From assembly GCA_964632315.1 (NCBI GenBank), contig CAZWEM010000030.1:1-55434 (forward strand): 55,434 bases of DNA. Direction: 5' to 3'. Origin of the DNA: an uncultured archaeon. GTDB taxonomy: Archaea > Asgardarchaeota > Lokiarchaeia > Sigyniarchaeales > SOKP01. Positions 47,478 to 50,952 of the stretch are shown piece by piece. Numbering within the stretch: position 1 is the first letter of the stretch; every line of letters starts with the position of its first letter. The translations under genes were made by a program, and so were the position numbers. The notes beneath the pieces are model-generated. The model was not told the DNA's origin and did no database searches. It worked only from the letters and a program-made list of their open reading frames with translations.

Positions 47478-50333
47478 TCAATTTTTTATTTCTAAAGAAA
47501 CTTCAACTGTGTTATCGTCTATTTTAAATATTTGGGTCTCCATTTGGTCAGTAATTCTTTTTATTATATTATCTGCTTGAATTGATTTTTTAATTTTATT
47601 TTCGTATAAGTCTAGAGCCTCTAGAATTTGTTCATTATTAGATGAAATGTAGAGATTTATTCTATTGCTTGGAGAGAGCTTCTTCTTTTTCCTACAATTA
47701 TTTAAATTTCTGATCAAGTTTCTAGTTATTCCTTCCAATTTCAACTCCGGAGTAATAACTGTATCTAAATTTATCGAGAGCTCTTCGACCGGGCTATTAT
47801 CAACAACCACTTCCCTTACATTTAAAGTTTGTGAAATGAGATCTAAATATTCTTGCTTGAGATCGACTCCCTTAATGGTGACTTTCTGCAGTACTTGTCT
47901 TACAGGAATTTTTGCATTTTCCCTTAACTCAAACGTTCGCTTTACGATTTCTTTAGTTAACTCCATCTTTTGTTGAAGATCTTGATTGATTAATTCTTCC
48001 TCATAACTTGGCCAAGATTCTAAATGAACCGATTCGAGATTAGTTATATTATTCTCCTTTAGCTTTTGATAAATCATTTCTGAAATGAAAGGCGTGAGGG
48101 GTGCTGATAGTTTTGCTAGATTTAAAAGCACGTATGAAAGAGTGTTCATCGCATTCAGTCTTTTGGATTCTAATTCACTTTTAAACCGATTTCTACTGTT
48201 TTTAAGATACCACGTTGAGAGATCCTCCACAAAACTAAATACCAACCGACAAACTTCAGAGGTATCGAAATCATCCATTCTTAGGGTCACTTCCCCGATT
48301 AATTCGTTAAGTGTGCTAATGATCCATTTATCCATGATATTGCGAGAATCGGCTAAATTTATAGTTGAGTTATTGATATCAACCATCGAATAAAACCTTA
48401 AAACATTTATCAATAATAAATTAAATCTTCGATAGACTTGTTTTACAATTTCCTCTTTGAAGTTTAAATCTTGGGCTCTCATGAGTTGTGAGGACATTAA
48501 ATAAATCCGTAAAGCGTCTGCTCCGTATTTCTCTATGATTTGGTTTGGATCGGGAAAATTTCTCTTTGATTTTGACATCTTGGTTCCATCCTCCGCGAGA
48601 ATATTTCCATTTACTACTACATTTCTAAACGGGATCTCATCAAATAATAGAATTGAAATCACGTGCATGTAATAAAACCACGCTCTCACTTGTCCTATAT
48701 ATTCTGATACAAAATCACTGGGAAAGTTTGTCTTGAACCATTCCACATTTTCAAATGGGTAATGTTTTGCTGCGTAAGGCATTGAACCAGATTCTAGCCA
48801 GCAATCAAAAACTTCAGGAATTCGATTCATCACCTTTCCACAATTTTGACATCTCAAATGAATCTCATCTACGATATGTCTATGGAGATCAACGTCATCC
48901 GGAACCCCCTCTACTGCATTTTCTTGTAACTCTTTAATCGAGCCAATCACTTTAACCGCATGACAGCCTTCACATTCCCAGATCGGTATAGCGGTGGCCC
49001 AAAAGCGATTTCTAGATATACACCAGTCTGGAGCTGTTTCCACTATATTTTGATATCGTTTTGCTATCTCTTTAGGATACCAGTTGATCATTTCATTTGT
49101 TTTTAGTAATTTTACTTTTATCTGCTGGATATCAATGAACCATGCATCGAGAGCATTATAAATTAAAGGAGTTTCACATCTATAGCAAAATGGATAAGAA
49201 TGGGTGTAATTTTCTGAACTGTACAGGAGATTTTTTTGTATCAAATCCTCCAATACTACTTCATCCAAGTCTTTGAACCAAAGTCCAATCCACTCTGGGG
49301 GTCCAAGCGCTAACTTCCCTTGTTCATCAACATGCTGAATTTGAGGTAGATCATATTTCTTAATCATTTCGTAATCAAATTCTCCATACAATGCCACGTG
49401 AATTATTCCCGTTCCTTCATCTGATAAGACTTCCTCCCCTCCATCGATGACGTAGTACCCTTTTTCATCAGCGTCATTCGAAATTCGATATAAGGGTTCA
49501 TATTTCTTGTTTAATAATTTTGATCCTGGAAATTCCTCAATGACTTCATAATTTTCTTTAACGATATTCAACTGATCCTTAATCAAAATGAAGAATTCAT
49601 CGCCTATCTTTACCTTGACATAGATAGCTTTGCTATTTATTGCTAAAGTTACATTTCCGATTAGAGTCCATGGAGTGGTTGTCCATGCTAAGAGGAAAGT
49701 GCTGGGATCATTCTTTAGTTTAAACTTAGATATGACTGATTGTTCAGTGACATCTTTATAGCTATTATCCATTGATATCTCGGAATTTGAGAGTGGAGTC
49801 TCGCATCGTGGACAGTAATACAATACTTTTTTACCCCGGTATACCAGCCCTTCCGTATATATTTTTTTAAAGATATACCACACCGTTTCCATGAAGCTGT
49901 TATCCATGGTTTTATAAGAGTTATCAAACTCAATCCACTTACCCATGCGCTCAACTGTCTCTTTCCATTCGTTAGTATACCAAAGAACCTTCGAACGACA
50001 GAATTCATTGAAGTTCTTTAGACCCATCTCAAATATCTCATTCTTCTGCCTAATATCAAGCGTTCTTTCGCAAATACTCTCTATAGGGAGTCCATGACAA
50101 TCCCAACCCCAGCGTCTTTCGCAACGGTATCCCTTCATCGTCCAATATCTAGGAAAGACGTCTTTGGTTACAAAAGAAAGAATATGTCCATAATGAGGTA
50201 ATCCAGTTGCAAAAGGAGGTCCATCATAGAACACGTATGGATTCCTTTTCGGCCTTTGTTCGATGCTCTTTTCGAAGATGTGATTATCTTTCCAAAATTT
50301 AATGATTTTCAGTTCTTTTTCGTTATAAGACAT
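47478..50333 (-). CDS. ileS: Isoleucine--tRNA ligase (archaeal/eukaryote-type)
   Basis: DGPPFATGLPHYGH (HIGH), GWDCHGLP, WTTTPWTL, DWCISRNRFW, KMSKS; SD AGGAG at 50343-50339. Confidence 0.97.
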   Translation of the reverse strand: MSYNEKELKIIKFWKDNHIFEKSIEQRPKRNPYVFYDGPPFATGLPHYGHILSFVTKDVFPRYWTMKGYRCERRWGWDCHGLPIESICERTLDIRQKNEIFEMGLKNFNEFCRSKVLWYTNEWKETVERMGKWIEFDNSYKTMDNSFMETVWYIFKKIYTEGLVYRGKKVLYYCPRCETPLSNSEISMDNSYKDVTEQSVISKFKLKNDPSTFLLAWTTTPWTLIGNVTLAINSKAIYVKVKIGDEFFILIKDQLNIVKENYEVIEEFPGSKLLNKKYEPLYRISNDADEKGYYVIDGGEEVLSDEGTGIIHVALYGEFDYEMIKKYDLPQIQHVDEQGKLALGPPEWIGLWFKDLDEVVLEDLIQKNLLYSSENYTHSYPFCYRCETPLIYNALDAWFIDIQQIKVKLLKTNEMINWYPKEIAKRYQNIVETAPDWCISRNRFWATAIPIWECEGCHAVKVIGSIKELQENAVEGVPDDVDLHRHIVDEIHLRCQNCGKVMNRIPEVFDCWLESGSMPYAAKHYPFENVEWFKTNFPSDFVSEYIGQVRAWFYYMHVISILLFDEIPFRNVVVNGNILAEDGTKMSKSKRNFPDPNQIIEKYGADALRIYLMSSQLMRAQDLNFKEEIVKQVYRRFNLLLINVLRFYSMVDINNSTINLADSRNIMDKWIISTLNELIGEVTLRMDDFDTSEVCRLVFSFVEDLSTWYLKNSRNRFKSELESKRLNAMNTLSYVLLNLAKLSAPLTPFISEMIYQKLKENNITNLESVHLESWPSYEEELINQDLQQKMELTKEIVKRTFELRENAKIPVRQVLQKVTIKGVDLKQEYLDLISQTLNVREVVVDNSPVEELSINLDTVITPELKLEGITRNLIRNLNNCRKKKKLSPSNRINLYISSNNEQILEALDLYENKIKKSIQADNIIKRITDQMETQIFKIDDNTVEVSLEIKN

Positions 50334-50374
50334 TATATCTCCTACTTTTTATTTAATTATTCAAGTTTCTAAAT

Positions 50375-50382
50375 AAAAAAAA
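50375..50382 (-). terminator. U8 tract in the ileS leader (candidate conditional archaeal terminator)
   Basis: A8 on plus = U8 on the ileS mRNA, between the leader helices and the ileS SD. Confidence 0.35.
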
Positions 50383-50420: not shown

Positions 50421-50571
50421 ATGCATTCATGAAGCGGGATGTGGTATGAAGTTTATAAAAATTCACTTCATGAAGAAAAGAATTCAGCCAATAATAATCG
50501 TGGATGCACTAATAATGAAACTGCATATCAAAATTGAGAAATTAGTACTTTCTTTCATAATAACCACATCC
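50421..50571 (-). promoter_or_regulatory. Putative ileS attenuator RNA with alternative helices
   Basis: Complementary segment pairs 50464-74/50426-36, 50563-71/50437-45, 50515-26/50421-30 and 50465-71/50446-52. Confidence 0.6.
50484..50558 (-). CDS. Putative Ile-rich ileS leader peptide (24 aa)
   Basis: ATG...TGA encoding MKESTNFSILICSFIISASTIIIG: 7 Ile including II and III runs; ends 150 nt before ileS on the same strand. Confidence 0.7.
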   Translation of the reverse strand: MKESTNFSILICSFIISASTIIIG

Positions 50572-50736
50572 ACTAATTACAAATAAGGGAACTAAATTTT
50601 TAAAATTTGTTGATGATTTATCCAAAATGGGAACTCGTTCCCTCAAATAAAAAAATATTTATTTTATTTATCCCGTTTCTGTGTTGATGATTATCGAATG
50701 GTTAAATTGAGGAAGATTTCAATAAAATTTTATTAT

Positions 50737-50952
50737 TCACGTTTTTAATTTGCTTAAAGATTGATTTTTACTAAACTCTTCAATGATTATCAATGGCTCC
50801 AATTTTTCACGTTTATAATTGGTTGGTGTTGATATTCGATATTCTTTAATACAATCATTAGAACATGACTCAAACATCTTATTACATACTTTACAATAAA
50901 GTCTTCTTTGTTTAGGAATTAATAAATTTTCACAATACGGACAAAATCTCAT
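50737..50952 (-). CDS. TFS/RpoM (RPB9/RPA12/RPC11-like) N-terminal zinc-ribbon-only protein
   Basis: MRFCPYCENLLIP....LYCKVC; SD AGGTGA; no C-terminal ribbon. Confidence 0.65.
   Translation of the reverse strand: MRFCPYCENLLIPKQRRLYCKVCNKMFESCSNDCIKEYRISTPTNYKREKLEPLIIIEEFSKNQSLSKLKT

Follow-up and report, generated by a model that had tools for sequence, protein, structure and literature searches.

A conserved isoleucine-run leader ORF upstream of an Asgard archaeal isoleucyl-tRNA synthetase gene: a likely sensor of tRNA charging

Results

The ileS2 locus and its leader ORF

The window analysed here, by which we mean the whole stretch of 55,434 nucleotides, carries on its minus strand a gene for an isoleucine--tRNA ligase, ileS2, preceded by a short ORF that ends in a run of isoleucine codons. 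The features of the locus, in the order in which they are met on the minus strand, are as follows:

50597..50605, minus strand: TATA-like box TTTTAAAAA; the stretch immediately before it is purine-rich and BRE-like (sequence and ortholog conservation)
50564..50571, minus strand: e1, GGATGTGG, 5' arm of the predicted switch (invariant in 31/31 aligned leaders)
50484..50558, minus strand: leader ORF, 24 codons plus TGA (read from the sequence; conserved in orthologs)
50501..50508, minus strand: e2, partner of e1 within the ORF, codons 17-20 (RNAalifold helix, columns 6-13 with 70-77)
50490..50498, minus strand: putative regulatory codons ATT ATT ATT (Ile 21-23), followed by GGC and TGA (ATTATTATT the same in 31/31 aligned leaders)
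50464..50473, minus strand: e4, which forms the 5' arm of P2 and begins about 10-12 nt past the stop codon (RNAalifold)
50437..50444, minus strand: e3, CCACATCC, downstream partner of e1, lying in the P2 loop and adjoining e5 (pair counts)
50427..50436, minus strand: e5, 3' arm of helix P2, contiguous with e3 (RNAalifold and pair counts)
50375..50382, minus strand: U8 tract, a candidate for U-tract termination of the archaeal kind or for part of a proximal promoter (sequence; function not shown)
50339..50344, minus strand: TAGGAG, Shine-Dalgarno-like site of ileS2 (sequence)
47478..50333, minus strand: ileS2, 951-aa isoleucine--tRNA ligase of a DPANN-like type (TIGR00392)

The leader ORF runs from an ATG at 50558-50556 to a TGA at 50486-50484, and its end lies exactly 150 nt from the ileS2 ATG (50333). 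It contains seven isoleucine residues, at codons 9, 11, 15, 16, 21, 22 and 23, and the C-terminus of the encoded peptide (III-G-stop) is hydrophobic. A first-pass annotation of the window had described a 24-residue ORF with seven isoleucines 150 nt before ileS, and this held in every detail against the minus-strand sequence. Its TATA-like box TTTTAAAAA, put at ~50604-50597, also held and is placed here at 50605-50597. The further claim that this box would set the transcript start just upstream of the ORF fits with the conservation, across 31 orthologs, of a CCGTAAT-ATTTTTTAGA-type BRE/TATA-like box ~25-30 nt upstream of e1. Archaeal promoters have a usual TATA-to-start spacing, and on that basis the leader transcript is likely to begin ~3 nt before e1; the start site is unmapped and this position remains an inference. 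Finally, the Asgard origin that had been suggested for the DNA agrees with the organisms named as sources of close homologs.

A 71-aa ORF (window 50737-50952, minus strand) lies directly upstream of the leader; its sole match, which falls below curated cut-offs, is to the N-terminal zinc ribbon of transcription factor S / RPB9. In the two orthologous loci that were read upstream of the leader, the neighbour on that side is not this ORF.

ileS2 encodes a DPANN-like isoleucyl-tRNA synthetase

The product of ileS2, IleRS2, scores 821.5 bits against TIGR00392 (cut-off 621.4) and has Pfam matches to tRNA-synt_1, Anticodon_1 and DUF5915. The same genome contains the N-terminal part of another IleRS (C95:3171-4985; TIGR00392, 650 bits for that part), which is 35% identical to IleRS2, as well as a further ileS-like C-terminal match (C81:154-1173). 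Both pieces sit at the ends of short contigs; the sequence upstream of this other IleRS gene is fully available, but the integrity of the gene cannot be judged. The other type of IleRS, of about 1048-1060 aa, is 77-87% conserved across the family, and the ~1050-aa enzymes of relatives are 32-35% identical to IleRS2. Of 54 genomes of the larger genus, 46 have it, mostly alongside the window's type. No match to it at E<=1e-150 was obtained in seven genomes of the window's own genus, though ileS2 is present in them; ileS2 has therefore not been shown to be accessory everywhere. An Ile-run ORF was absent upstream of the ~1050-aa type in all 9 loci read.

The nearest non-Asgard relatives of IleRS2 are those of DPANN archaea (Micr-, Woese-, Nano- and Iainarchaeota; 52-63% identity), followed by CPR bacteria (45-48%). 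Since the closest enzymes outside the Asgard archaea belong to these groups and the other IleRS type is so much more distant, we infer from sequence similarity that ileS2 is likely to be a second, laterally acquired IleRS gene. This point had been missed by the first-pass annotation, in which the gene downstream of the leader was not recognised as a second, DPANN-type paralog distinct from the ~1050-aa type of relatives.

Two peculiarities of the orthologous genes may be recorded here. In ~14 of them (L029, L030, L034, L036-L041, L043, L044, L047, L049 and L053), ATT or ATA stands at the position of the ileS2 ATG, and AAGGTG lies 6 nt before it; in L038 and L041 the sole upstream in-frame GTG is followed by TAA. 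It seems, as an inference from sequence alone, that ileS2 of these orthologs uses a non-AUG (Ile-codon) start, which may be a further control point. In four others (L137, L138, L150 and L186) the IleRS2 match spans 1.0-1.4 kb more DNA than at other loci, and this span suggests an insertion inside ileS2 (an intein, intron or mobile element).

The leader ORF is conserved across Asgard ileS2 loci

Judged within one genome alone, the leader ORF is unremarkable: genome GC is about 32%, and 53/9032 short upstream ORFs of this genome (ATG ORFs upstream of long ORFs) have III within their last 7 codons. It is conservation that decides. A protein search with ileS2 identified orthologs, 68-78% identical, in 38/134 other genomes of the same family, belonging to two main genera, and 31 upstream regions of ileS2 orthologs were aligned. 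An ATG start occurs at the equivalent place in 30/31 of these leaders, and the ORF is exactly 24 codons long in 28/31. All end in an uninterrupted isoleucine run (III in 12, IIII in 19) located 0-1 codon before the stop. The length changes among the 31 are confined to -3 and -12 nt and a single 1-nt insertion, the last of which brings a stop directly behind the Ile run.

The run itself, ATTATTATT, is invariant in every aligned leader, synonymous sites included, where the neighbouring protein is only about 70% identical. Of 112 codons in the terminal Ile runs, 93 are ATT, 18 ATC and 1 ATA. Outside the run the peptide is poorly conserved, and third codon positions show no excess variation (column entropy over codons 2-16 of 0.79, 0.86 and 0.95 at positions 1, 2 and 3; 31 leaders). 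Low conservation of the peptide together with a kept run suggests, again by inference from the sequence, a leader that is likely to be read rather than used. A comparison of orthologous leaders had been proposed as a check on the original idea; it was clearly positive, with start, frame, length, stop and terminal Ile run all kept.

A wider scan, using one genome per species, yielded 80 loci with the window's IleRS type, comprising 33 from Asgard archaea (67-78% identity) and 47 from DPANN, CPR or other organisms (45-63%). The leader ORF was present in 33/33 of the former and in 0/47 of the latter, several of which have a GC content of 24-30%. The caveat originally attached to the ORF, that ATT is common in an AT-rich genome, is met by this distribution, because equally AT-rich relatives outside the Asgard archaea lack it. 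Upstream neighbours vary from one ileS2 locus to another. A JGI metagenome contig encoding a 65%-identical IleRS has the leader, and two GC-rich relatives (57-59% identity) do not. The e1...e3 pattern occurs in about 35/135 genomes of the family, once per genome and adjoining ileS2 wherever coordinates were compared; a whole-genome search revealed no second copy in this genome. The few matches that lie elsewhere look like chance, and a reversed control gave 2 matches. Because the sequences are related by descent, counts of orthologs overstate their independence.

Two alternative helices are predicted to share the same 5' segment

Element e1 ends 5 nt before the leader ATG and might possibly double as a Shine-Dalgarno-like site for the ORF, on grounds of resemblance alone; the 3' end of the 16S rRNA is missing from the assembly. 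In the RNAalifold consensus of the 31 leaders, e1 pairs with e2, which ends 2 nt before the Ile run, and e4 pairs with e5 to give P2, while the ATT run remains unpaired. The e1:e2 helix is paired in 98.8% of cells, with one compensatory pair (UA 17, CG 6, UG 6), and P2 has 10 pairs, 97.1% of cells paired and 3 compensatory pairs in 15 cells. Element e1 can also pair with e3, through 9 pairs with 99.6% of cells paired and 3 G-U changes, and a flanking pair is T:A in the window and A:T in other leaders. Sliding the 3' partners by 1-3 columns, as a control, left only 23-59% paired. In L157, the most divergent leader, the first G of e1 is replaced by A, with a matching C>T change in both e2 and e3, and the distance from e1 to e3 is held at 127-129 nt in 27/31 leaders. 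We conclude that e1 is likely to have two conserved and mutually exclusive partners, e2 and e3, as predicted by these models. The e1:e3 helix is nearly invariant, so that its covariation support rests on few substitutions.

Two further structural proposals did not survive. The claim that e1:e3 and e4:e5 exclude each other sterically was dropped, because a coaxially stacked pseudoknot is possible and ViennaRNA cannot model one. A hairpin after the stop codon (H1, AAATTC...GAATTT) is paired in 87% of cells, lacks convincing covariation and is at most a minor element.

The 31 orthologous leaders were then folded with ViennaRNA, either free or with the footprint of a ribosome on the Ile run masked from P-12 to P+15. 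Mean pairing probabilities in the free RNA were 0.43 for e1:e2, 0.36 for e1:e3 and 0.37 for e4:e5 (n=31); with the footprint masked they became 0, 0.82 and 0.04, respectively (n=31). The model thus predicts that the free leader is nearly balanced between two folds, and that a ribosome on the Ile run would tip the balance to e1:e3.

The spacer before ileS2 and the output step

Between the leader and ileS lie 115-285 nt. The sequence directly after P2 is A-rich, and the U tract follows ~45 nt beyond P2 in the window and ~55 nt beyond it in L157. Runs of T5-T8 occupy the equivalent place in the larger clade, L009, L086 and L157; no T run of >=5 is present in five short-spacer leaders (L010, L048 and L050-L052). 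The alternative folds of the leaders include no intrinsic terminator (a hairpin with a direct U run), and no conserved structure was detected between e5 and ileS (RNAalifold, 21 orthologs, energy 0.0). All clades have a TATA-like, AT-rich element 50-70 nt before ileS. This could possibly be a proximal ileS promoter, in which case the leader would be a separate transcript.

Two candidate outputs were tried and rejected. Sequestration of the ileS Shine-Dalgarno site received no support, since constrained folding of 31 orthologs gave about equal unpaired probabilities for the ribosome-binding site in the free, stalled and stop states, within the limits of a purely thermodynamic model. Pairings of e3 or e4 with the ileS start region were short and AU-rich and lacked conservation from clade to clade.

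In archaea, transcription terminates at U tracts with the aid of aCPSF1/FttA (PMC8716108, PMC7515710, PMC11616081), and for this reason regulated premature termination of the U-tract/aCPSF1 type is our first guess for the output, albeit one that we think a little more apt to prove wrong than right. Translational or re-initiation control is possible, as are an effect on mRNA stability and some other route. No RNA data bear on any of these: the 14 sequencing runs found to contain this DNA, mostly from salt-marsh and marsh metagenomes, are all DNA runs, with no RNA run among them, and no cultured organism that has the leader was identified.

Leader ORFs with leucine runs precede leuS and leuA

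A scan of this genome for upstream ORFs that end in homopolymer runs gave two further cases, leuS and leuA. The leuS gene encodes an archaeal LeuRS (TIGR00395, 840 bits) and is preceded in 28/30 family loci by an ORF of 26-30 codons with a terminal Leu run. In this genome (C37, L007:1205-1420, plus strand) the ORF has 27 codons, including five terminal Leu codons, and a 10-bp hairpin starts 4 nt past its stop; across leuS leaders a conserved hairpin begins at or within a few nt of the stop codon. From the TATA position we infer that the leuS leader ORF is likely to be leaderless. Two genomes of a neighbouring family, whose leuS is 49% identical, have no Leu-run ORF in front of it. We also observed, ~25 nt downstream of the leuS hairpin, a conserved purine-rich box to which the loop of the hairpin (CUCUUUUUC-like) is complementary.

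The leuA gene encodes 2-isopropylmalate synthase (NF002085, 578 bits). Here 29/30 loci, with matches drawn from 11/13 genera, have an ORF, mostly of 31-40 codons, that ends in a Leu run of up to 8 Leu in the last 8 codons, and a covarying hairpin follows its stop. The copy in this genome (C2, L087:420-660, plus strand) is a 36-codon ORF with a terminal Leu run and then the hairpin; no U tract lies between hairpin and leuA at this locus (L087). As a separate observation, leuA has in most orthologs an in-frame N-terminal extension of ~13 codons, with its ATG behind an AGGT box. In this genome (L087:600-660, plus strand) the extension ATG is out of frame by 1 nt, beside an A run, which may be a real difference or a homopolymer assembly error.

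No cognate-run ORFs were found in this genome before ValRS-like genes, class II aminoacyl-tRNA synthetases, Trp/TyrRS, PheRS or ilvB/C/D; MetRS, ArgRS, CysRS, GluRS and AlaRS fell outside the check. A scan of other synthetase and biosynthesis genes had been proposed together with the ileS leader, and its result is that Leu-run leaders occur at leuS and leuA and that most other synthetase genes and the ilv genes of this genome are without such leaders. In three unrelated leader families, the residue of the run matches the amino acid of the downstream gene, and it is this match that argues most strongly for tRNA charging as the signal.

Discussion

A model for control of ileS2 by its leader

The results presented above make it likely that the leader is a peptide sensor of the supply of Ile-tRNA(Ile) that controls ileS2. 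There are no transcript or ribosome data; that the ORF is translated is an inference, and the same holds for the transcript start, for the direction of control and for the output step. In the model, transcription would begin a few nt before e1 and a ribosome would translate the 24-codon ORF. When charged tRNA-Ile is plentiful, the ribosome would pass the ATT codons, terminate and leave, after which e1 would pair with e2 inside the ORF and the e3-e5 strand would fold alone. Scarcity of charged tRNA-Ile, or inhibition of the other IleRS, would make the ribosome stall on the ATT run. Its footprint of ~28 nt would cover e2 on the 5' side, and the stop codon and the first nucleotides after it on the 3' side. 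Masking of e2 would leave e1 to pair with e3, and the abutting e4:e5 helix would be remodelled. The two folds would then be read out as more or less ileS2 expression. By analogy with T-box-controlled synthetases, and as an inference from physiology, the most probable direction is induction of ileS2 on stalling.

The first-pass annotation had proposed an attenuator in which stalling at Ile codons raises IleRS expression. The attenuator reading is supported by the conserved ORF, the cognate run, the alternative covarying helices and the Leu-run leaders; direction and output are still inference.

Alternative explanations

The first alternative retains the sensor and changes its sign, such that stalling lowers ileS2 expression, or changes its trigger to ribosome-targeting drugs or general translation stress, as in erm/cat-type leaders. 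No result here determines the direction. Moreover, if the ribosome stalls at a long distance behind the polymerase, nascent RNA could become accessible to a termination factor, as may be inferred from the need of aCPSF1/FttA for free U-rich RNA (PMC8716108, PMC11616081). However, the cognate-codon runs of three families point to tRNA charging as the signal, and for the cell there would be little sense in repressing a synthetase when its charged tRNA is scarce. The opposite direction is also seen in bacterial T-box control and in the inducible second IleRS of Bacilli (bioRxiv 10.1101/2022.02.09.479832). We therefore regard this alternative as very unlikely.

A second possibility is that the leader acts as a structured RNA switch responding not to the ribosome but to some other signal, such as a tRNA, a small molecule or a protein, IleRS2 itself included, and that the ORF is incidental. 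In its favour, e1, e3 and the ATT run show the nucleotide-level conservation that RNA elements should have, the helices covary, and Shine-Dalgarno use is sparse in this genome. Against this, ATG, frame, length and stop are kept in 30-31/31 copies with indels only in multiples of 3 (the insertion behind the Ile run noted above apart), the ATT run is unpaired in the consensus fold, and the residue of the run agrees with the downstream gene at ileS2, leuS and leuA alike. Nor is there any Rfam match, T-box included. We give such a switch very little credence.

Third, the ORF might encode a functional small hydrophobic peptide on its own transcript, ending at the U tract, with ileS2 expressed from a proximal promoter and the adjacency of the two not regulatory. 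The AT-rich element shortly before ileS in all clades, the U8 tract downstream of the leader and the hydrophobic C-terminus are compatible with this idea. It is nevertheless highly improbable, given that the sequence outside the Ile run is poorly conserved without excess variation at third codon positions, and that the e1...e3 pattern lies beside ileS2 wherever coordinates were compared, with few, chance-like matches elsewhere. The Leu-run ORFs before leuS and leuA would also require the same coincidence three times, and an RNA switch overlapping the ORF would be left unexplained.

Lastly, a chance ORF in AT-rich intergenic DNA, for which the commonness of ATT at 32% GC and the 53/9032 short upstream ORFs with III near their end might be cited, is all but excluded by its presence in 33/33 Asgard loci versus 0/47 other relatives despite differing upstream neighbours, and by leader length and spacing that are fixed across orthologs.

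Implications

Leader-peptide attenuation, familiar from textbooks as a bacterial mechanism, requires that ribosomes keep close behind RNA polymerase. The full-text literature that we searched describes no archaeal leader-peptide or attenuation system, and Rfam 15 holds no equivalent; archaeal Ribo-seq papers mention uORFs only in general terms. The first-pass annotation had described the mechanism as barely documented in archaea. The leader bears on the open question of whether archaea use transcription-translation coupling for gene-specific regulation and, since it has no terminator hairpin, its output should inform on the regulation of archaeal termination or translation initiation. Asgard archaea are the closest known prokaryotic relatives of eukaryotes, in which uORF-based sensing of tRNA charging is central.

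A bolder reading, towards which we lean without holding it firmly, is that one Asgard family (NCBI gives its genomes names such as Promethearchaeota) has a small regulon of ribosome-read leaders for branched-chain amino acids, with Ile leaders for a laterally acquired second IleRS and Leu leaders for LeuRS and isopropylmalate synthase. Archaea would then have their first described case of leader-peptide attenuation, with its own switch architecture and an output that cannot be a bacterial-type terminator. If correct, it may reveal regulated archaeal termination or coupling-dependent control, and ileS2 may be an inducible back-up against starvation of the main IleRS or its poisoning by a natural inhibitor. 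The locus would then present a horizontally acquired synthetase gene that carries a charging sensor, both parts of which are inferred. The case rests on about 33 ileS2 loci and two further gene families, and it offers defined nucleotides to mutate.

Comparison with known systems

The U8 tract at 50382-50375 resembles the known signal for archaeal U-tract/aCPSF1 (FttA) termination (PMC8716108, PMC7515710, PMC11616081). However, regulation by leader translation is not known for that system in the literature searched, and the U tract is not found in all leaders.

T-box elements precede aminoacyl-tRNA synthetase genes in Firmicutes and Actinobacteria, including ileS1/ileS2 of Priestia megaterium, and in Bacilli a second, inducible IleRS stands beside a constitutive one (bioRxiv 10.1101/2022.02.09.479832). 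The proposed induction at poor tRNA charging is shared with these systems. In contrast, the leader has no T-box structure or specifier loop, and charging is proposed to be read through codons by a ribosome rather than by direct binding of tRNA. Searches with Rfam 15 returned nothing at gathering score in the window, and only noise up to E=10 in the ileS2, leuS and leuA leaders; with no covariance-model match at either level, the element is not a T-box riboswitch. Translational attenuation of the erm/cat type is likewise unsupported, as the predicted access to the ileS ribosome-binding site is unchanged between states (31 orthologs; thermodynamic model).

Closer in form are the leaderless poly-Cys short ORFs of mycobacteria and the ilvB uORF of Corynebacterium (bioRxiv 10.1101/834739; PMC10272879), which are likewise cognate-run ORFs and represent amino-acid-responsive attenuation outside the classical enterobacterial model. 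The leuS leader shares its apparent leaderless state with the mycobacterial poly-Cys ORFs. Those systems are, however, bacterial, and they differ in structural logic and in targets.

The closest parallel is with the bacterial leader-peptide attenuators (ilvL, leuL, thrL, hisL and trpL, and pheM before pheST). In common with these, a short ORF has a cognate codon run near its stop, the peptide is otherwise unconserved, and mutually exclusive helices overlap the ORF such that the position of the ribosome would pick the fold; the kinds of target, synthetase and biosynthetic enzyme, are shared as well. Unlike them, the leader belongs to an archaeal host and lacks a hairpin-plus-U-run terminator, a single 5' segment just ahead of the start codon has two alternative partners, of which one would be covered by the stalled ribosome and the other lies in the loop of a downstream helix, and a long, unstructured spacer of 115-285 nt leads to the gene. 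The leader thus meets four defining features of leader-peptide attenuators and fails the terminator feature, with the proviso that helix switching is predicted by a model and the response to Ile or charged tRNA is inferred. While its output step is unresolved, it is likely to represent a known principle in a new domain of life, implemented by a new switch design.
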